A stretch of DNA of 64,000 nucleotides, taken from assembly GCA_963724635.1 (NCBI GenBank), contig CAVRVI010000007.1:73790-137789 (forward strand), in the 5' to 3' direction. Source of the DNA: an uncultured Chloroflexia bacterium (GTDB lineage: Bacteria; Chloroflexota; Limnocylindria; Limnocylindrales; CSP1-4). The notes under the pieces are model-generated. The model did no database searches and had not been told where the DNA came from. It saw nothing but the letters and a program-made list of their open reading frames with translations. Of the stretch, positions 11,032 to 20,157 are shown one piece after another (the first letter of the stretch is position 1; each line of letters begins with the position of its first letter). A program made the translations under genes and the position numbers.

Positions 11032-12732
11032 TCAAGCCTCGGGCGGGTCGGTCGTCGTTCCGCCCCCGACCGGGCCCGGATCATGCGCCAGGTGACGCAC
11101 GGCGACCTGGGTCGCGATGGCGCGACTGCGCGGCTGACCCGTCAGCGCCTCCAGGAACGCGTCCCGCTCGAGTCCCAGGACTTCGACGTCCTCGATGGCG
11201 CGGACCGTGGCGGTCCGCGGGATGTCGTGGATGAGGGCGATCTCGCCGAACGCATCACCGGGCCCCACGGAGCCCGTCACAACGTCCGCGACCACGACCT
11301 CGGATCGGCCGGAAACGACCATGTAGAACCGGTCACCGCGGTCGCCCGCGGTGACGATCGTCTGCCCGGCCAGGAAGGCCAGGGGCACGGCGTCGGCCGC
11401 CAGGCGCTCCAGGACCGGTCCGGCCAAGGGCCGGAACATCGGCACCGATCGGATCACCCGCAACTCGCGGAGCAGCTGTGTTTCGGCCCGGTCGGCGCGC
11501 AGGAACGTCGGTGCCGCGAGCAGCGCGACGACCGGCAGCGCGAGCCCGGCGACCACGATCGCGCCGCTCGGCCCGAAGGCGAAGATCAGGAGCGGGACCA
11601 GCAGGCCGCCGACGGCCTCGGCGGCAGCCATGACGGATTCGGTGATCCCGAAGACCCGGGTCATCACGTCATCGCCCGCCAGGCGCTGTGTGAGCGTCGT
11701 GGCGGCCACGTACGCGAACGACCAGCCGATGCCGCTGATCACGAAGACGACGGTCACGAGCAGCGGCGCACGCACGATCCCAAGGACCGCGACCGCGAGC
11801 CCGAAGGCGACGGCAGCGATGATCAGGGGCCGGCCGAGCCGCGCGCGACCCACCAGCACGACCGACGTCGCCGAACCCACCAGCGCCCCCAGGCCCGAGG
11901 CTGCCGTCAGGAACCCCACGGCGGCGTCGTCGAGGCCAAGCAGGTCGATCGCGATGACCACCGTGAAGACCCCGAGGGCACCGAGCAGCGCGATGGCGGC
12001 CGCCAGGACGACGAGGATCCCGCCGAGTCGTCGGTCCGCCGCCACCGCCGCCGCGCCGCCCGCCAGCTCACGACCGAGCGCGCGGAGCATCCCCCGCGTC
12101 GAACCGGCCGCATCGGTCAGGATGGCCTCCCTCGGGATCGCGGCCGCCGTGCGGGCGATCGGCGCCAGGGCAAGGGCCGCCAGCAGCGCCCCGATCGTCG
12201 TGGCCGCGAAGACCGCCGGTGCGCCGCTGATGCCGAGGAGCACGCCGGCCAGCAAGGGTCCCGCCAATGCCCCCGCCCCCTCGGCGATCCCGGAGACCAC
12301 GTTGGCCGCCGTGAGCTGATCGGGCGTCTCCACCACCTCGGGGAGCAGCGACGAGAGGGCTGGTCGGCTGAGCCCGATCGTCGTCGCGGCGATCGTCGCG
12401 AACGCGTACGCCAGAGGCGGCGGTCCCCACAGGAGGGACGCGGCGGTTGCCGCCATCGCCGCGGCCTGCAGCACGTAGGACGCCAGGAGGACCCGGGCGC
12501 GCGGCCAGCGGTCGCCCAGGAGCGCCGCGCCCGGCGCCACCACGATCGACGGGACACCGATGACGAACCCGACGATCCCGGCCTCGGTCGCGCCGCCGCG
12601 GCCGAACGCGTAGACGACGATCGCCAGCCAGCTCGCCCACTCGCCGATGCTGAAGAGGAGGAACCCGCCTTCGATCCGGCGCAGGGCCGGACTCCGACTG
12701 ACCGCCGAGATCACCGCCAGTTGTGCCCGCAT
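11032..12732 (-). CDS. MFS transporter fused to C-terminal cyclic-nucleotide-binding domain
   Basis: About 12 TM segments; GDRFYMV.SG...GDAFGEIALI.DIPRTATVRA. Confidence 0.9.
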   Translation of the reverse strand: MRAQLAVISAVSRSPALRRIEGGFLLFSIGEWASWLAIVVYAFGRGGATEAGIVGFVIGVPSIVVAPGAALLGDRWPRARVLLASYVLQAAAMAATAASLLWGPPPLAYAFATIAATTIGLSRPALSSLLPEVVETPDQLTAANVVSGIAEGAGALAGPLLAGVLLGISGAPAVFAATTIGALLAALALAPIARTAAAIPREAILTDAAGSTRGMLRALGRELAGGAAAVAADRRLGGILVVLAAAIALLGALGVFTVVIAIDLLGLDDAAVGFLTAASGLGALVGSATSVVLVGRARLGRPLIIAAVAFGLAVAVLGIVRAPLLVTVVFVISGIGWSFAYVAATTLTQRLAGDDVMTRVFGITESVMAAAEAVGGLLVPLLIFAFGPSGAIVVAGLALPVVALLAAPTFLRADRAETQLLRELRVIRSVPMFRPLAGPVLERLAADAVPLAFLAGQTIVTAGDRGDRFYMVVSGRSEVVVADVVTGSVGPGDAFGEIALIHDIPRTATVRAIEDVEVLGLERDAFLEALTGQPRSRAIATQVAVRHLAHDPGPVGGGTTTDPPEA

Positions 12733-12782
12733 CCCCGACAGCATGCGATCCGGCTGTCACCCCCGTGCGTCGGTCGTCTCGC

Positions 12783-13472
12783 TCAGGTCAGCCTGAGCAG
12801 GATCCCGGCGAGGTCGGACGGTCGCGTGAGGAACGGCGAATGGCCCCCGCCGAGCTCGATCGCGTCGACGCCCAGGCGCTCTCGGGCCGCCTTCCGCAAC
12901 CAGTCAGGGTTGAGGGCACGGTCATCGCGACACACGATCACGGTCGATGGGACGTCCGGCCAGGCGATCAGCGGCGTCGGCTCGCGCATCGCGCGATAGG
13001 ACTGGGCCCGCAGCCGCCCGACCGCCCAACGCGCGGTCGCAGCGGGCGCATCGTGGAAGAACAATTCGGTCGCGGTCGCGGGACCGATCATCCAGACGTC
13101 ATCCCCGAGATCGGTCCACTGCGCGTTCGTGGGCTGGATGCGGCCGTCGATGGCCTCCGTGTCGCGCTGGTCGTTGAGGCTGCGGCCCGGGGACGGCAGG
13201 AAGGCCGTCACGAACACGAGGCGCTCGACGGGTCGATGAGCGGCGACCAGCGGGATGACGAGGCCCCCCATCGAGTGACCGACCAGGAGCGGCCGCTCGA
13301 TGCCTTCGAGGGCCGCCTCCACCACCCCGGCGTACTCGGCGGCCCCGGCGTTCGGGTCGGAGATCGGGAGGTCCACCGCGATCACCTGATGGCCGGCCCG
13401 CTCCAGTGCCGGCCGAAGGAAATCCCAGCACCACGCCCCGTGGTACGCGCCGTGGACGAGCACGATGTCCAT
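12783..13472 (-). CDS. Alpha/beta hydrolase (methylesterase-like)
   Basis: LVHGAYHGAWCW, GHSMGG, DDRAL, GGHSPF. Confidence 0.92.
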   Translation of the reverse strand: MDIVLVHGAYHGAWCWDFLRPALERAGHQVIAVDLPISDPNAGAAEYAGVVEAALEGIERPLLVGHSMGGLVIPLVAAHRPVERLVFVTAFLPSPGRSLNDQRDTEAIDGRIQPTNAQWTDLGDDVWMIGPATATELFFHDAPAATARWAVGRLRAQSYRAMREPTPLIAWPDVPSTVIVCRDDRALNPDWLRKAARERLGVDAIELGGGHSPFLTRPSDLAGILLRLT

Positions 13473-13565
13473 CCCGGAACTGTACTCGAGGGACCGCGCC
13501 AGGTGACACCTGTCGCGTCGGACCTACCCATGGGATCCCTGGAGCGCGAGCGTATCCTGTGGGCC

Positions 13566-15206
13566 ATGTCGACCGGGGTGGCGGCGGGGACGACACATCG
13601 CGGGCTCTCGCCCGTGACTCTCGTCGCCCTCGGCCTGCCGCTGCTTGGCCTCGCGCTCCTCCTCGCCGACCCATCGCTCGACATGGAATGGGAGCACCAC
13701 CCGAGTCACTTCTGGCTGGTCCTGGTCACGGCCGCCGTCAACGTGGTCCTCGCCTACGTCACGAACGTGGCGGCCGGTCGCCACCGCGACGCCCGGATGG
13801 TCCTGATCTCGCTCGCCTTCCTCGCGAGTGCCGGGTTCCTGGGCTTGCATGCGCTCGCCACGCCGGGCGTGCTCCTGCCGAGCGCCAACGCCGGATTCGT
13901 GATCGCGACACCCATCGGCCTAGTCATCGCATCGGTGTTCGCGCTCCTCGCGACCGGGCCGTTCGGGGGCCCGCGCGCCCGCGTCGTGCTCCGCCTGCGT
14001 CCCATCCTGCTGGCCGGCTTGCTCGCGGTCATGGCGCTGTGGGCGATCGTCTCGATGGCGCGATTGCCGCCCATGGATGGACCGCCGCCCTCACGCGAAG
14101 GCGTCGGCCTGCTCACCGTCCTCGCGATCGTCGCCGTCGTGCTCTATGCGATCGCCGCGTGGCGGGCGGCTGCCCTGTATCGACGCCGTGGGGGCAACGT
14201 CCTGCTGAGCCTGACGGTCGCGATGGTGCTCCTGGCAGAAGCCATGATCGCGGTCGTCCTCAGTCGGAACTGGCATGCGAGCTGGTGGGAATGGCACCTC
14301 CTCCTGCTCGCGGCGTTCCTGGCCATCGCCCTGGGTGCCCGGAGCGAGTACCGCCGCAGTGGATCGTTGTCGGGCGCCTTCGGCGGCCTGTACCTCGAGG
14401 CAACGCTCGCGCGCCTGGATCGTTGGCATGCGGGTGCGATCGCGGCGGTCGTCACCGCCGAAGAACGCGGCGAGTCGACCGAGCGGGTCCTCGACGACCT
14501 CCGCGCCGAAGGTGCGACGAGCGACGAGGTCGCGCTGCTGGAGCAGGCTGCCGATGAGCTCCGGCGTCTCGACGCGGCCTTCCGTCCGTACCTGCCGTCG
14601 GTCGTGGCGGAGGGGATCCGCCAACGCGAACCCGATGTCGCCCGACTCGGCGGCGAGGAACGCGTGGTCACGGTGCTGTTCGCCGATCTGGCGGGCTTCA
14701 CGACCTTCAGCGAATCCCGGGCGCCGACCGAGATCATCACGATGCTGAACGAGTATTGGGCGGCCGTCGTTCCAAGCATCGACGCCGCTGGCGGCGTGAT
14801 CGAGCATTTCGCGGGGGATGGCGTCATGGCGATCTTCAATGCCAACGGGACCCAGCCGGACCACGCTCGGCGGGCCGCGGCGGCCGGATCCGCGATCGTC
14901 GCGGCCGGCCGGCCCCTCACGGCGGCGCACCCGGGATGGCCGGTCTTTCGTATCGGGATCAACACCGGCCCTGCCGTCGTGGGCAATGTCGGGGCAGCCG
15001 ATCGCCGCAGCTTCGCAGTCATCGGCGACACGACCAACACGGCGGCCCGCCTGATGGCCGCGGCCGAGCCCGGCCGGGTCATCGTGGGCCGATCGACCTG
15101 GTCGGCGCTGGATGACCCGGATGCCGGTGTCGCGCTCGGCGGCGTTCGCGTCAAAGGCAAGGTGGAACCGGTCGAGGCCTGGGTGCTGGACGAGCGCCGT
15201 GGGTGA
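13566..15206 (+). CDS. Membrane-bound class III adenylate/guanylate cyclase
   Basis: Multi-TM N-terminus; TVLFADLAGFT, GDGVMAIF, IGINTG, VIGDTTNTAARL, VKGK. Confidence 0.9.
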   Translation: MSTGVAAGTTHRGLSPVTLVALGLPLLGLALLLADPSLDMEWEHHPSHFWLVLVTAAVNVVLAYVTNVAAGRHRDARMVLISLAFLASAGFLGLHALATPGVLLPSANAGFVIATPIGLVIASVFALLATGPFGGPRARVVLRLRPILLAGLLAVMALWAIVSMARLPPMDGPPPSREGVGLLTVLAIVAVVLYAIAAWRAAALYRRRGGNVLLSLTVAMVLLAEAMIAVVLSRNWHASWWEWHLLLLAAFLAIALGARSEYRRSGSLSGAFGGLYLEATLARLDRWHAGAIAAVVTAEERGESTERVLDDLRAEGATSDEVALLEQAADELRRLDAAFRPYLPSVVAEGIRQREPDVARLGGEERVVTVLFADLAGFTTFSESRAPTEIITMLNEYWAAVVPSIDAAGGVIEHFAGDGVMAIFNANGTQPDHARRAAAAGSAIVAAGRPLTAAHPGWPVFRIGINTGPAVVGNVGAADRRSFAVIGDTTNTAARLMAAAEPGRVIVGRSTWSALDDPDAGVALGGVRVKGKVEPVEAWVLDERRG

Positions 15207-15263
15207 CGAGCGGTCGCCGGGGCCTGGTCGGACCGAGCGTCGCTCGTGTACCCTTCGCCCGTC

Positions 15264-15332
15264 ATGGACCGATCCGTCGCCCGGCGTTCATACGACGCCT
15301 GGTTCGCCACCATCTCCAACAGGAACGGCTGA
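15264..15332 (+). CDS. Putative leader peptide MDRSVARRSYDAWFATISNRNG
   Basis: TACCCT -10 at 15249-15254; followed by a 12-bp hairpin (15334-15370) before the GTPase RBS. Confidence 0.45.
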   Translation: MDRSVARRSYDAWFATISNRNG

Positions 15333-15454
15333 GCCGCCCCTTCCAGCACCAGCGTCGGTGGAAGGGGCGGGACGGACGCGTGCCGCTGTCATCACCCGCG
15401 ATCCGGGTGGTGCGCGACCGTGCCGGGCTCGCCGATCTCACAAGGAGAACGGTC

Positions 15455-16384
15455 ATGCCCATGCCGCATCGCACGTTCGCCCAGGTGGCGAAGCGACGGC
15501 TCATCGGAAAGGAAGGTCGGGAGCGGATCCGCGAGGTCCGAGCGCTCCTGGCGGAATTGCCCGACTACCGGAACGGTCCGTACGCGGACCTGCGCAAGTC
15601 CCTGCTCGCGGAGATCGACGACACTCGCGTCCGATCGAGTGCCGTGCACCGCGACTCGATCGCGGTGCGTCGCGAGGGCGAGGCGCAGATCGCGCTGGTC
15701 GGCCCACCCAACGTCGGGAAGTCGTCGCTGCTCCAGGCGTTGTCGGAGATCCAGATCAAGACCGGTGACTACCCCTTCACCACGCTCCGACCGGTCCCGG
15801 CCCTCACACGCATCGGCGGGGTGCTCGTCCAGCTCGTCGAGATCCCGGGGCTGATCGGTGGGGCCACCGAAGATCGCGGTGGTGGCCGAGCCCTCCTGGG
15901 CGTGCTGCGTTCTGTAGACGCGATCGTCTACTGCACGCGGGCCGGCGCGGACCCTGGCGACCTCCAGGTCGTTCGGGCCGAAGTCGCCGCCGCCGGGATC
16001 GACAAGCCCTCGGTCCTCGCGATCACCCGCGCGGACGAGGCCGATGAAGCGGCCGTGACCCAGCTGGCCGCGGCATTCCCGGAGCTCGAGGTCGTGCGCG
16101 TCTCGATCCTCGATGACGTCTCACTCGACACGTTCCGCGACGCCGTGTGGGCGCTCACCGGGCTCATCCGCGTCCGGCTGCGCACCGACGCCGGTATCGA
16201 TGACGAACCGACCGCGATGGACCCGGGTGCCACGGTCGCCGACGTGGCCGATCGCATCCACCACGATCTCGGCCGGTCGTTCAGTGGGGCGCGGGTCTGG
16301 GGGCCCTCGGCCCGGTTCGACGGCCAGCGCGTGGGCCGTGAGCACGTCGTGCTCGACGGCGACATCGTGGAGATCCTGCGTTGA
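15455..16384 (+). CDS. OBG-family DRG/Rbg-like GTPase with TGS domain
   Basis: GPPNVGKS, DYPFTT, G.GRA.L..LR; C-terminal ARVWGPSARFDGQRVG.EHVVLDGDIVEI; AAGGAG RBS. Confidence 0.85.
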   Translation: MPMPHRTFAQVAKRRLIGKEGRERIREVRALLAELPDYRNGPYADLRKSLLAEIDDTRVRSSAVHRDSIAVRREGEAQIALVGPPNVGKSSLLQALSEIQIKTGDYPFTTLRPVPALTRIGGVLVQLVEIPGLIGGATEDRGGGRALLGVLRSVDAIVYCTRAGADPGDLQVVRAEVAAAGIDKPSVLAITRADEADEAAVTQLAAAFPELEVVRVSILDDVSLDTFRDAVWALTGLIRVRLRTDAGIDDEPTAMDPGATVADVADRIHHDLGRSFSGARVWGPSARFDGQRVGREHVVLDGDIVEILR

Positions 16385-16390
16385 TGGGGT

Positions 16391-17627
16391 TCAGCCGTCC
16401 CCGACGCCGTGTCGGAGGCGGGTCGGTGACAGCAGCACGCAACACCCGATGAACGCCAGCGCCATGGCGAACAGCAGCCACAGGCTCGCCACGAAGGTCC
16501 CGGTGGCGTCGCGGGCCGCCCCGAGCACGAACGGGCCCATGGACGAAAGGACGTAGCCGCCCAACAGCATCAATGCGGCGACCGCGCCCACCTGCGAGGG
16601 CTCGTCGGCGACATCGAGCGGCAGCGTCAGGACCAGCGGGAAGATGGCCCCGAGTGCGAGGCCCACGAGGATCACCCAGGCGACCGTCAGGTCCGGCGCG
16701 ACGCTCAGGCCGGCCATCCCGACGGCCGCGAAGGCCGCGGAGATGACCAACTGGCCGCGACGGGTCCCGAGGCGGTCCGCGACGAGCGGCACGCCCAGGG
16801 TCGCGATCAGCCCGACCCCGTTGAAGACCCCCAGCAGCAGGCCCGTCTCCCCGGCGGACCAGCCGCGCTCCACGAGCACGTTCGGCAGCCACGCGACGAT
16901 GCCGTAGAACATCAACGACTGGATCCCGAAGACGAACACGAGCAGCCAGGCGGTGCGGCTGCCCCACGGCAGGCGCAGGGCTCGTGCCCGCACCGGTCGG
17001 TCACGACCGTCCGCCCGGACGAACGTCAGCCACGCGACGAGCGACCCGAACGACAGTAACGAGATGACCGCGAGCGACCGCTGCCATGCCTCGCCACCCA
17101 TGGCGAGCGGCACCGCGATCGCTGCGGCGATGGCGGAGCCGGCGACGATCCCCCCGGCGTAGGCGCCGGTCCCAAGGGCACGACGCCCAGGCAGGTGCTG
17201 CGACACGACCATCGATGGCACGGCCCCGGCGATCCCGATGCCGATGCCGATGACCAGCGTCGCAAGGAGGAGCAGGCCCACCGAGGGCACGATGGCCCGC
17301 ACCAGGCCGAAGCCGGCGATCAGGCCCAGGCAGAGCGGCCAACGTCAGCCGCGGGCCCAGGCGCGCTGCCACCCGAGGTCCGATGGGCGCGAACAGGCCC
17401 ATGCACAGGACGGGGATCGTCGTGATGAGCCCGCCGATGCTCGCCGGCAGGTCGAGGTCCGCCCGGATGGACGGCAGGAGCGGACCGATCGCGAGCAGCT
17501 GCGGACGCAGGGCGATCGAGGCCAGGAAGAGCCCGACGACCACCGTGACCGGAAAGGCTGGCGAGGCAGCCGGTGCGTCCTCCACGGCTGGCGCGGTGAG
17601 GAGTCCCGGTTCGGGCAGGTCGGACAC
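16391..17627 (-). CDS. CynX/NimT family MFS transporter, frameshifted near 17335
   Basis: LRPQLLAIGPLL..I..DL, TTIPVLCMG, FGIQSLMFY..VAWLP, GY...GP..LG. Confidence 0.85.
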
Positions 17628-17669: not shown

Positions 17670-19019
17670 TCAGGCGACGGCTTCGCCCGCTTCCACCGGC
17701 TCGCCGATCTCGATCGGGTTGTTGATCGGGTCCTGACTCCACTCGAACCAGCCCCCGTCGTAGACCGCGATCCGCGGCCACGCCTGGAGATACGCGTAGA
17801 ACCAGGTCTCGCTGGCCCGCCAGCCGGTGCCGCAGTAGTAGGCGACCCACTTGTCCGCGGTGATGCCGGCCTCGGCCCAGTTGGCCGCGATCTCCGGGTA
17901 AGCCCGCATCGTGTTGTCCACGTTGCGGTAGTGCTGCATGTGATAGGCGTCGGTGCCGCAGTTGCCCCAGACGTCACCCTTGATCCGTCCGGCCGGGCCG
18001 ATGTAGTTGTAGCCGCTCACATTGCCGATGTGTTCGCGCCAGGTCCGCACGCTCACGAGGGCCGCGCCATCGGGATCGGCGATGATCTCCTTGGCCTCCT
18101 CGATATCGACGATGACCTCCGGGCGCAGCGGGATCGGCACTCCGAACGCCTCGACCGGCGAGGGCTCGCGCAGCGTCGTCTCGATCGGGTGACCGGCCTT
18201 GACCCACCAGTCGAAGCCGCCATCGAGCAGGCGGATGTCGTCGACACCTGCATAGCGCAGGATCATCAGGGCCCGCGTCGCGGCGATCTGGCCGGCCCGC
18301 CGACCCGGCCACTTCTCGTTGGCGTCACCCTCGGTGTCACGCCCATAGGCGATGACCGTGGTGTCCGACGTGATGCCGAGCGAGCGCAGGGCGGCATCGA
18401 GCGCCTCGGGCGAACGGCGGTTCCAGTCGGCCGGGTCCTCCAGCCAGTTCGTGTCGAGGTAGAGCGCCCCCGGGATGTGGCTCTCCTCGTACTCCTCGGG
18501 CACGCCGAAGTTCACGTGGAACAGCAGGAACTTGCCAGGCGGGGCGGCCTCGGGTCGGCCGCCGGCGAGGACGTCGCTGAGCCAGCCGACATCGACGAGG
18601 GCCTCGTGGCGCGGCAGCCTGTCGACGGGCAGGGCCGGATCGGCCGCCCAGGCGGTGAACCCGTCAGCGAGGAGCTCGATGTCGGTCAGGGCGCGCGCGC
18701 GGAGCACGGGGACCAGGCTCGCGGCATCGTCGAGGCCATCGCCGTAGACGATCACGCGGCGGTCGGGCCCGATGCCCTTCTCGTCGAGGATCCGCTCGAT
18801 CTCGGGCGCGTCCACGCTCGCCAGCCACTCCGCCGGGAAGGCGACCGCGCCCGGGATATGGCCGCCGCGCGCGTCGTCGCCCTGTCGCCAGCCGTTGTAG
18901 GCGCGCAGTGGGCGAACGTCGATCACCGTCACGCCCGGATCGGTCAGTCGATCGCGGAGTGATTCGACGGTCGTCGTCGGCGTCTCGGCGCCGGTGTCGA
19001 TCGGATGGGGTGTCGTCAT
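17670..19019 (-). CDS. Three-domain rhodanese/sulfurtransferase (YnjE-like)
   Basis: GHIPGA twice; active loop YCGTGWRAS; YDGGWFEW. Confidence 0.92.
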   Translation of the reverse strand: MTTPHPIDTGAETPTTTVESLRDRLTDPGVTVIDVRPLRAYNGWRQGDDARGGHIPGAVAFPAEWLASVDAPEIERILDEKGIGPDRRVIVYGDGLDDAASLVPVLRARALTDIELLADGFTAWAADPALPVDRLPRHEALVDVGWLSDVLAGGRPEAAPPGKFLLFHVNFGVPEEYEESHIPGALYLDTNWLEDPADWNRRSPEALDAALRSLGITSDTTVIAYGRDTEGDANEKWPGRRAGQIAATRALMILRYAGVDDIRLLDGGFDWWVKAGHPIETTLREPSPVEAFGVPIPLRPEVIVDIEEAKEIIADPDGAALVSVRTWREHIGNVSGYNYIGPAGRIKGDVWGNCGTDAYHMQHYRNVDNTMRAYPEIAANWAEAGITADKWVAYYCGTGWRASETWFYAYLQAWPRIAVYDGGWFEWSQDPINNPIEIGEPVEAGEAVA

Positions 19020-19051
19020 GTGGTCGTCGTCCCTTTGGCTCGCAGGTGCTG

Positions 19052-19081
19052 GAAACAAAAGACCCCTGCCGGTGCAGGGGT
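19052..19081 (-). terminator. Intrinsic terminator in the sulfurtransferase leader
   Basis: ACCCCTGC-ACCG-GCAGGGGT followed by CTTTTGTTT on the minus strand. Confidence 0.85.
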
Positions 19082-19124
19082 ATCAGGAGGGAGATCGGGC
19101 GTGCGGTTCACGCGGGTCGCACGC

Positions 19125-19178
19125 CTAGATACACCACCTGCCCTGCTCGGCAGCCGGCTGACACATACAGCAGCACAT
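19125..19178 (-). CDS. Cys-rich leader peptide MCCCMCQPAAEQGRWCI
   Basis: ATG TGC TGC TGT ATG TGT ... TGT ATC TAG; sits inside an attenuator upstream of a sulfur gene. Confidence 0.75.
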   Translation of the reverse strand: MCCCMCQPAAEQGRWCI

Positions 19179-19323
19179 GGTGTTCGCGATGGCGGCTCAT
19201 CGTCGGCGGAGTGTGACAGGACGACGAGCCCGGCACAAGCCCCCGAGTCGCAACCTTCGGGAACGGGCGCTCCCACATGGTGGCCATCAGGCCGGCGGCG
19301 AGCCGGTCTGCGACCATACGCTG

Positions 19324-20157
19324 ATGGACCCTGACACCCCCGAGCACGAGCTCCTGGATCGTCTCGAGCGGTACTACGACGCCGTCCCTCGGACCGGCTC
19401 GCAGGTGGAGCCGTTCGGCCCCTTCATGATCTTCGTGCCGCAGGGCGGATTCCCGCTCTATGCGCGACCCCGGCTTGGCCTGACCACGCCGATCACGGCC
19501 GACGAAGTCCGGGCCGTCACGGAGCGGCAGCGCGCGCTGGGTGTTCCGCAGGCCCTGGAGTGGGTCGCGGAAACGACGCCATCGCTCGCCGAGGCCGCCC
19601 GGGCCGTCGGCTTCACCGTGTCGGAGCTTCCGTTGCTGGTGCTCCGCGAGCCGAGGGCGGTCCCGGCGCCGGACGGCGTCGTCATCCGACGCATCCAGCC
19701 CGATGAGCCGGCCCTCAGGCGCATCCTCGCGGTCGCGGCCGTGGCCTTCGGCCATGCCGGAACCGCGACCGGTCCCGCCGGCCCGCACGAACGCGACCGG
19801 CACGCCGCCGCCGACCAGCGCGATCACGCTCGATTGCGGGAGCGACTGGCGGCCGGACTCACGATCATGGTCGTCGCCGAGGATGAGCGCGGGCCGATCG
19901 CGTCCGGCGCGCACCAGCCGGTCGGGGACGTGTCCGAGGTCGTCGGGGTCGCCACGCTCCCATCCGCCCGGCGACGCGGTCTCGGGGTCGCCATCACCAG
20001 CATGCTCGTGGCGGATGCCCTGGCTGCCGGGGTCAAGACGGTGTTCCTGTCGGCGGCCAGCGACGACGTCGCCCGCATCTACGAGCGTCTGGGGTTCGTC
20101 CGGGTCGCGCACGCGGGGATCGCCGAGCCCGCACCTGACCCGGCGGCGACGACCTAG
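19324..20157 (+). CDS. GNAT acetyltransferase
   Basis: EVVGVATLPSARRRGLG...VFLSA...ARIYERLGF. Confidence 0.9.
   Translation: MDPDTPEHELLDRLERYYDAVPRTGSQVEPFGPFMIFVPQGGFPLYARPRLGLTTPITADEVRAVTERQRALGVPQALEWVAETTPSLAEAARAVGFTVSELPLLVLREPRAVPAPDGVVIRRIQPDEPALRRILAVAAVAFGHAGTATGPAGPHERDRHAAADQRDHARLRERLAAGLTIMVVAEDERGPIASGAHQPVGDVSEVVGVATLPSARRRGLGVAITSMLVADALAAGVKTVFLSAASDDVARIYERLGFVRVAHAGIAEPAPDPAATT

Follow-up and report, generated by a model that had tools for sequence, protein, structure and literature searches.

A conserved leader that probably acts as a cysteine-sensing transcription attenuator precedes a triple-rhodanese sulfurtransferase gene in Candidatus Limnocylindrales

Does the short, cysteine-rich open reading frame (ORF) in front of a sulfurtransferase gene of an uncultured Chloroflexia bacterium serve to sense cysteine, and would it do so by transcription attenuation? 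The locus is contained in a stretch of 64,000 nucleotides (nt) of contig CAVRVI010000007.1 (assembly GCA_963724635.1, positions 73,790 to 137,789), which we call the window and to which all coordinates refer. Between the start of a GNAT gene and the ATG at 19019 of the sulfurtransferase gene lies a divergent intergenic region (19020-19323), which provides the minus-strand sulfurtransferase gene with a leader region of about 305 nt. From the letters of this leader alone, the original prediction had proposed that a ribosome stalled on cysteine codons causes read-through of an intrinsic terminator. Comparison with the leaders of orthologous loci makes it likely that we are dealing with a classical leader-peptide attenuator, in which the ribosome senses cysteine and thereby controls transcription of an operon of a rhodanese gene and a major facilitator superfamily (MFS) transporter gene in Candidatus (Ca.) Limnocylindrales.

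The individual parts of such an element were all recovered. The downstream gene (17670..19019, minus strand) encodes a protein of 449 aa with three Rhodanese stretches (PF00581, E 1.4e-33) and belongs to the YnjE/'Sulfurtransferase' 6h98 class, in agreement with the triple-rhodanese sulfurtransferase that had been claimed. As assembled, the upstream ORF (uORF) runs on the minus strand from 19178 to 19125 (MCCCMCQPAAEQGRWCI*, 17 codons followed by the TAG at 19127-19125), and the predicted four cysteines within six codons are present. Scanning 18900-19450 for intrinsic terminators yielded one site, on the minus strand, while shuffled sequences gave a mean of 0.0. This site (19052..19081) consists of ACCCCUGC, an ACCG loop and GCAGGGGU (19081-19062), followed by a T tract at 19061-19052 (CUUUUGUUUC); the hairpin has 8 pairs, 6 of them G-C, a loop of 4 and the tail CTTTTGTTTC. 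It is the terminator with a U tract of the original prediction, and it stands where a classical attenuator has one, between the leader ORF and the structural gene.

If the uORF is a sensor, its reading frame and its cysteine codons should be kept in front of homologous sulfurtransferase genes, a check that had been proposed together with the prediction. We therefore compared leaders in an alignment of 63 distinct sequences; some of the counts below cover 61 of them. An ATG in frame with the conserved stop codon was found in 59 of the 63 leaders, at a distance of 60, 63, 66 or 69 nt from the end of the penultimate codon. The variable N-terminal part thus changes its length by whole codons only, giving ORFs of 21-24 codons. 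In 55 of 63 leaders the stop follows three nt after the penultimate codon and abuts a hairpin, termed P2 here; seven leaders extend 2-6 codons into P2 beyond the usual stop, and one leader (L084) is misaligned. The expected conservation of a uORF with cysteine codons was therefore borne out.

Cysteine codons are strongly enriched in these ORFs. They make up 156 of the 854 codons (18.3%) in the 14 codons before the conserved 3' segment, compared with 0.86% in 1213 long ORFs of the genome. Two to four in-frame cysteine codons are present in 60 of 61 leaders, which corresponds to the clustered codons of the sensed amino acid in classical attenuators. Two such codons were counted in 32 leaders, three in 22, four in six and one in a single leader; the window, with TGC TGC TGT ATG TGT at 19161..19175, is among those with four. 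The arrangement varies between C-x-C, CC, C-x-C-x-C and CCC-x-C, mostly with C-x-C in the middle of the ORF, and codon usage is mixed (TGT 108, TGC 48). Counted by frame, 161 cysteine codons are in frame versus 74 and 67 in the other two frames, a poor control since TGTGT repeats overlap frames. Apart from the cysteines, the N-terminal half of the peptide is unconserved. At the C-terminus, most leaders encode Q-G-R-W-C, and here conservation includes synonymous positions. Divergent leaders encode QGRRC, QGNGC, QGGRC or QGRPC and yet retain complementarity to the downstream spacer, for example GGCGGUGU/ACACCGCC in L081. Conservation at synonymous sites, together with residue changes that keep the pairing, indicates that the C-terminal part is conserved at the RNA level.

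Where does the leader ORF begin? The original prediction had pointed to a second ATG at 19200, placed 9 nt past a CACACT box and one base out of frame. This is correct, the distance to the ATG at 19178 being 22 nt. The promoter-proximal ATG (19198..19200) is the probable true start, at the position where 59 of 63 leaders have their in-frame ATG. The -10-like hexamer CACACT (19210..19215) has a -35-like hexamer, TTGTGC (19233..19238), 17 nt upstream of it. A comparable arrangement of TTGnnn, a spacer of 17-18 nt and a -10-like hexamer (CACAAT, CAGAAT, CACACT, GACAAT and similar) was detected in 58 of 63 leaders, and in 55 of these 58 the gap between the -10 box and the ATG is 8-10 nt; five leaders have an out-of-frame ATG inside the -10 box. 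Such a gap leaves no room for a Shine-Dalgarno (SD) sequence, so that the mRNA would be leaderless or have a 5' untranslated region of at most about 3 nt. We conclude that the leader mRNA is probably leaderless or nearly so, with a predicted start at or near ATG 19200.

The frame between this ATG and the cysteine codons is apparently interrupted in the window by a single base at 19196, which is probably an indel of the assembly or else a variant of the strain. This base is missing from contigs of two public soil runs, each from a different study. The first run contributes one contig of 151 nt (depth 2 of 2) with one other difference from the window, the second one contig with 224 nt aligned (depth 3.31 of 3.31) and four other differences. 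A contig of a third run (X3) matches perfectly up to 19195 and then continues with a loose end of 11 letters that can be read as the window minus base 19196. This comparison used contigs, none of which alone spans the full 501-nt stretch compared. Once the base is removed, ATG 19200 is in frame with the cysteine codons and the uORF comprises 24 codons, equal to the closest relatives. The proposal of a longer uORF hidden by a one-base indel was thereby supported as far as the indel is concerned, and has to be corrected at the second residue, which differs from the one predicted. The MFS gene of the window is split as well, which fits an indel-prone assembly. On the other hand, the contigs may derive from related strains and not from the source sample, and a real, strain-specific frameshift is therefore possible. 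The exceptions to the conserved frame are four of 63 leaders, namely the window (70 nt), L045 (67 nt), L070 (68 nt) and L084; read from its ATG, L070 passes through CCCC and then slips out of frame. L045 and L070 come from metagenome-assembled genomes (MAGs) with megabase contigs, and there too the frame from the promoter-proximal ATG is off by one or two bases. Indels of such a kind thus seem to recur in small ORFs of such assemblies.

Between the cysteine codons and the T tract, the RNA contains several elements that are conserved in structure. A small helix within the uORF is formed by CUGCC (19149..19153) and GGCAG (19142-19138), with 93.2% of the cells paired and compensatory changes in two of five pairs. 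Of the candidates for segment 1, CUGCC/GGCAG appears the best supported, in addition to the ACACCA/UGGUGU pairing of the original prediction. CUGCC lies 8-12 nt past the last sensor cysteine codon, and hence would be covered by a ribosome stalled there. Segment 2 (GCAGGGCAGGUGGUGU, 19131..19146) forms the 3' end of the uORF and is nearly invariant. It can pair upstream, with segment 1 and the ACACCA region, or downstream, with a spacer and the 5' arm of the terminator. At the last base of the stop codon begins the hairpin P2 (19098..19125), made of GGCGUGCG, a 12-nt loop and CGCACGCC. Compensatory changes were found in five of its eight pairs, 95% of the cells are paired, and its loop varies in length and sequence. 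The stop codon itself alternates between UAG and UGA in step with the P2 stem. P2 was absent from the earlier description; in our models it would form the tip of the anti-terminator stem, and we speculate that it may also act as a pause hairpin. In the anti-terminator, the 3' part of segment 2 is predicted to have the C-rich spacer (19082..19097) as its partner. Finally, the terminator helix is paired in 99.3% of the cells in the 63 leaders, with four of seven pairs invariant and the T tract following. The structure as a whole performed better than all 500 shuffles on four of five measures and better than all slid controls. A search of 18800-19500 on both strands against Rfam gave no matches at E values up to 1.

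Can these segments switch between two states depending on the position of a ribosome? The alternative folds, whose modelling had been suggested as a further check, show that segment 2 can pair upstream or with the 5' arm of the terminator. The proposed pairing of segments 1 and 2 (ACACCAUGUGCUGCUG with CAGGGCAGGUGGUGU) is the minimum free energy (MFE) fold of the free leader, and the proposed pairing of segments 2 and 3 appears when the 5' part of the uORF is masked and the 3' arm of the terminator is not yet made. Without a ribosome the RNA is bistable, its MFE fold being upstream pairing of segment 2 plus terminator in 32 of 63 leaders and the anti-terminator without terminator in 30. For ribosome-bound states we assumed a footprint of -15 to +12 nt around the A-site codon. 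Usually, 33 nt separate the last sensor cysteine codon from the end of the penultimate codon; a ribosome on this cysteine codon thus covers segment 1 and leaves segment 2 just free. With the ribosome placed there and the RNA made up to the terminator loop, 53 of 61 leaders pair at least five of the seven bases of the terminator 5' arm with segment 2. The nascent fold is then one long stem with P2 at its tip, and its mean energy is about 7 kcal/mol below that of controls with shuffled segment 2. If the ribosome is placed at the stop codon instead, 49 of 63 leaders form the terminator.

In the resulting scheme, we infer the transcription start, the translation of the uORF, stalling, the efficiency of termination and the physiological logic alike. 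Transcription would start at or within about 3 nt of ATG 19200. The leader ORF, which has 24 codons once base 19196 is discounted, would be translated without an SD sequence, with the first ribosome coupled to RNA polymerase. When cysteinyl-tRNA is ample, this ribosome would reach the stop codon at 19127-19125 and cover segment 2 (19146-19131) and the foot of P2. The anti-terminator would be blocked, the terminator would form, and the transcript would end at 19052-19061, before the rhodanese gene. When cysteinyl-tRNA is scarce, the ribosome would stall on the cysteine codons at 19175-19161 and cover segment 1 (19153-19149), leaving segment 2 free. Segment 2, P2 and the spacer could then form the long stem that sequesters the 5' arm of the terminator before its 3' arm is made, and RNA polymerase would read through into the sulfurtransferase and transporter genes. 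The leader thus most likely turns the rhodanese gene on when cysteine is short.

Several observations weigh against this interpretation. The frame from ATG 19200 is broken in the window as assembled. About half of the leaders have just two cysteine codons and one has a single cysteine codon, and in some clades runs of histidine codons adjoin the cysteine codons. Taken alone, the leader of the window does not fold with unusual stability (z = -1.08; 29 of 200 shuffles fold as well), and therefore the case rests on conservation across loci. Pairing of the anti-terminator core, GCAGGG of segment 2 with CCCUGC of the terminator 5' arm, is possible in 98.9% of the cells, and the bases are invariant, so that covariation neither supports nor refutes this pairing. 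Shuffled versions of segment 2 still pair with a mean of 3.5 of the seven arm bases, because the segments are G-rich and C-rich. Likewise, segment 2 gains little in pairing energy from its cognate spacer and arm over those of another leader (-17.44 versus -16.92 kcal/mol); 14 of 2000 permutations do as well, in a test whose sequences, being related, are not independent. When the complete RNA is folded with a ribosome on the cysteine codon, 46 of 61 leaders have the terminator in their MFE fold and 14 have the anti-terminator. Since the terminator is still favored under a stalled ribosome, read-through requires kinetic pre-emption, that is, the anti-terminator has to form first. In the trp leader, too, the terminator is thermodynamically stronger than the anti-terminator, which must form first. 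A crude scan of 573 terminator-like sites in the own genome, which is 60.7% complete, led to no second cysteine leader that we accepted. It returned 21 short ORFs with C-x(0-1)-C, and counts for D, F or M were similar. Five of the ORFs with C-x(0-1)-C were inspected and rejected, being either part of a long ORF or not followed by a plausible gene.

The low number of cysteine codons raises the question whether cysteine is the sensed signal at all. A translation-coupled attenuator could instead respond, like the whiB7 uORF, to ribosome stalling in general or to the capacity for translation, or it could sense another amino acid such as histidine or arginine. The 32 of 61 leaders with only two cysteine codons and the one with a single such codon would fit such a device, as would HHH or HHHH beside the cysteine codons in a subclade, RR in many leaders, and a second leader type of the same gene family (see below) that has only 1-2 cysteines. 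We nevertheless consider it unlikely. Cysteine is the sole residue type kept in the variable N-terminal and middle part, with TGT and TGC varying synonymously, and the regulated gene encodes a sulfurtransferase. The histidine codons, moreover, are CAC repeats that complement GGUGGUG of segment 2, and RNA pairing can therefore explain them. One might also question whether translation matters, and regard segment 2, P2, spacer and terminator as a riboregulator that binds a ligand or a protein, with an incidental ORF. In favor of such an RNA, hardly any base changes in segment 2, the P2 stem or the terminator, while the protein encoded next to them has only 64-87% identity. This degree of invariance is explained by bases that are used doubly, for coding and for two alternative pairings. 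The frame kept in 59 of 63 leaders, the whole-codon length changes and the stop fixed at the foot of P2 in 55 of 63 are not expected if the ORF is incidental, whereas the P2 loop and the spacer, where a binding pocket would be expected, vary in length and sequence; no Rfam family matched. A riboregulator of this type seems to us even less probable than sensing of a signal other than cysteine.

Cysteine could also be sensed in a different manner, through the initiation of rhodanese translation. In this mycobacterial-style mechanism the SD sequence is occluded, and the hairpin and T tract would not be a working terminator. The only experimentally studied cysteine uORFs are indeed reported to act translationally (10.1101/834739). 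In the Chloroflexota leaders, though, a G+C-rich stem of 7-8 bp with its T tract is conserved, the stem being paired throughout almost all cells as given above. The terminator lies about 30-45 nt before the rhodanese start and excludes the candidate SD sequence AGGGA (19034-19030, minus strand), and by eye no complementarity was found between the cysteine codons and the SD region. Occlusion of the SD sequence is accordingly an improbable explanation and ranks behind the riboregulator. The least credible alternative is that the small ORF encodes a functional cysteine-rich micropeptide, for example a metal or sulfur carrier that partners the rhodanese. Most leaders share the C-terminal Q-G-R-W-C and there are 3-5 cysteines per peptide, which a functional peptide could account for. 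The conservation of this C-terminus, however, extends to synonymous positions, and divergent leaders swap residues while retaining the pairing potential. The N-terminal half is unconserved, and in eight of 63 leaders the frame continues past the usual stop by 2-6 or more codons; we regard a functional micropeptide as highly implausible. Ribosome-mediated attenuation in response to cysteine hence remains the reading that we favor.

How widely is the leader distributed? The closest orthologous loci are found in Chloroflexota MAGs, mostly Ca. Limnocylindrales or 'uncultured Chloroflexia' from soil-type assemblies, and the Chloroflexota-like host that had been proposed is thus corroborated. Within the genus, 13 of the 14 closest loci (L002-L016, window excluded; 65-83% protein identity) have a cysteine uORF, the same hairpin and a terminator, and these uORFs end in QG(R/G/K)WC, with a few extra codons in L007. 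We built a covariance model, R1, from 14 leaders and applied it to orthologous loci from contigs of one genome per species. R1 matched directly upstream of the gene and on its strand in 60 of 80 orthologous loci, in 56 of them with E values below 1e-10. There is one copy in the own genome, and across the order R1 was detected in 26 of 151 sampled genomes, always as one copy, and in 7 of 27 genera. The own family accounts for 24 of 108 genomes, and the small-genome sister family for one weak match in 42 genomes. Copy numbers and range characterize the leader as a single-copy, lineage-restricted partner of the rhodanese gene.

The remaining 20 orthologous loci, which are R1-negative, include two that have no upstream DNA and others that are preceded by different elements. 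Four of the 20 (L043, L052, L109 and L114), together with L017-L019 from the genus search, have a different leader with its own terminator. This second leader, unrelated to the R1 type, occurs in other Limnocylindrales about 100-240 nt upstream of the rhodanese start. It comprises a TAGGGT box, 6 nt and a GTG or ATG start, a peptide of the form MIAH..SRDMC(x)C.. or similar with only 1-2 cysteines, and its own hairpins and T-tract terminator. In eight of the 20 loci, from Gaiellaceae, Thermoleophilia or Actinomycetes, there is no uORF. These loci have a box that resembles the inverted repeat TTTAC-N3-GTAAA; a box like CGCTTTACTTTGTAAAC is located 30-120 nt upstream of the gene in L068, L071, L072, L073, L080, L108 and L113. 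The box appears to be a repressor-like site, which would place the same gene under protein-based control in another phylum.

Which functions would be controlled by the leader? Downstream of the rhodanese gene lies an MFS transporter gene on the same strand (16391..17627) that is split over two frames. Positions 4-66 of the MFS_1 profile are found in an ORF at 17627-17001 (208 aa) and positions 83-347 in an overlapping ORF at 17302-16391 (303 aa). The nearest relative, L035 (87% identity), has a single MFS ORF of 416 aa at the same place, and the split is probably another one-base indel of the assembly. Rhodanese and MFS genes probably form one operon. Among solved structures, the top relatives of the 449-aa protein are 'Sulfurtransferase' chains of 441-460 aa, 6h98 (E 1.9e-114) and 6ktv (E ~1e-114), to which it is closer than to E. 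coli YnjE (2wlr, E 2.1e-88; 3ipo). The table of relatives labels 6h98 and 6ktv just 'Sulfurtransferase'; presumably, both are the ergothioneine synthase EanB. A search for PF10017, the family of the histidine-specific methyltransferases EgtD and EanA, was negative for the own genome (60.7% complete) and for five congeners with a completeness of 91-95%. Because no methyltransferase of the EgtD/EanA type was found, we have set aside an EanB-type role in ergothioneine synthesis for the rhodanese.

The surroundings of the operon comprise further genes. On the plus strand, the GNAT acetyltransferase gene (19324-20157) matches Acetyltransf_7 and related families. A long minus-strand ORF that extends over the leader (19108-20112) was rejected as a gene and is the antisense shadow of the GNAT gene. 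The convergent neighbors on the other side are also encoded on the plus strand. The gene at 12723-15206 specifies a protein of 827 aa with an adenylate/guanylate cyclase domain and a weak match, below the cut-off, to the MASE3 sensor domain. It is followed at 15203-16384 by a gene for a GTPase with MMR_HSR1 and TGS domains.

The leader, if it functions as proposed, would be of interest beyond this locus. It would provide a functional handle on an uncharacterised rhodanese-MFS operon in an abundant uncultured soil lineage, an operon that would be induced by cysteine shortage. Gene callers overlook the small ORF of the leader, for which a covariance model and a rule for annotation are now at hand. 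The locus also illustrates how indels of one base conceal such ORFs in MAG assemblies, and the MFS gene of the same window is split as well. More tentatively, the leader may represent a hitherto undescribed hybrid design. A leaderless mRNA, whose first codons are the sensor ORF, would be combined with an intrinsic-terminator switch. As few as two cysteine codons (C-x-C) would suffice, and the stop-codon hairpin would act as a pause or nucleation element that synchronizes RNA polymerase with the first ribosome. The targets of the switch would be a three-rhodanese enzyme resembling EanB and YnjE and, in addition, an MFS transporter. This combination of features is conceivable, and we think it rather doubtful that all of them apply. 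If they do, the leader would hint at a pathway, so far unrecognised, by which soil Limnocylindria scavenge sulfur or make thiols and which cysteine shortage turns on.

To what extent does the leader resemble known systems? A literature search, which did not cover subscription journals, found no paper on a cysteine leader of this kind in Chloroflexota or Limnocylindria. The closest model is provided by the classical leader-peptide attenuators, such as trpL, hisL and others of E. coli and Salmonella and the mycobacterial ilvB1 leader (PMC13236596). Like these, the Chloroflexota leader has a short ORF with codons for the putatively sensed residue, and the 3' end of this ORF has two possible partners, one upstream and the other in the 5' arm of a terminator. 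The proposed logic is the same, a ribosome at the stop codon leading to termination and a stalled ribosome to read-through. Unlike the classical attenuators, the leader has cysteine as the putatively sensed codon, is probably leaderless and free of an SD sequence, and often relies on two regulatory codons in a C-x-C arrangement. It also has the covarying hairpin P2 at the stop codon as the modelled tip of the anti-terminator, belongs to an uncultured Chloroflexota host, and targets a sulfurtransferase instead of a biosynthetic operon. The element is well conserved and mechanistically coherent and, in principle, not surprising.

Sensing of cysteine by ribosome pausing has been described for the leaderless polycysteine small ORFs (sORFs) Ms5788A and Rv0815A of mycobacteria (Canestrari et al., 10.1101/834739; Mol Microbiol 2020). 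One of these operons (Ms5788A) includes cysA2, a rhodanese-type thiosulfate sulfurtransferase. As many as eight cysteine codons in a row close the mycobacterial sORF on its 3' side, and this tract pairs with the SD sequence of the next gene; regulation is described as translational and without an intrinsic terminator. Both systems share a short ORF with cysteine codons and a rhodanese among the targets, and the Chloroflexota leader is predicted to be leaderless like the mycobacterial sORFs. More sulfur mobilisation or uptake under cysteine shortage would make physiological sense for the Chloroflexota operon, in parallel to the Ms5788A operon. In contrast to the mycobacterial sORFs as reported, the cysteine codons of the Chloroflexota leaders lie in the middle of the ORF, the terminator is conserved, and there is no sequence likeness. 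The defining mycobacterial feature, a consecutive cysteine run that pairs with the SD sequence in a leader without terminator, is not what we see here, where the SD sequence lies outside the conserved structure by eye.

A transcription attenuator for cysteine as such has already been proposed with the motif uORFC-8-2, which precedes cysS in Rhodobacterales (Brewer et al., RNA Biol 2021, PMC8632094). This ribosome-mediated attenuator, itself only predicted, has two conserved cysteine codons and stems that end in a U run. It differs from the present leader in that it precedes a cysteinyl-tRNA synthetase gene in another phylum, has tandem cysteine codons at positions 14-15 in the first stem, and, as described, is not leaderless. 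The leader presented here would extend ribosome-mediated cysteine sensing, beyond the translational mycobacterial system and the predicted Rhodobacterales cysS leader, to Chloroflexota, and the Chloroflexota version would be a terminator-based switch on a probably leaderless mRNA. Candidate cysteine leader peptides were also put forward for cys and cbs operons of Actinobacteria (Seliverstov et al. 2005, PMC1262725), which are described as having no conserved terminator hairpin, with Rho suggested instead. Short ORFs with cysteine codons in front of sulfur and cysteine genes are common to both groups of leaders, whereas in the Chloroflexota leader the terminator is the most conserved part.

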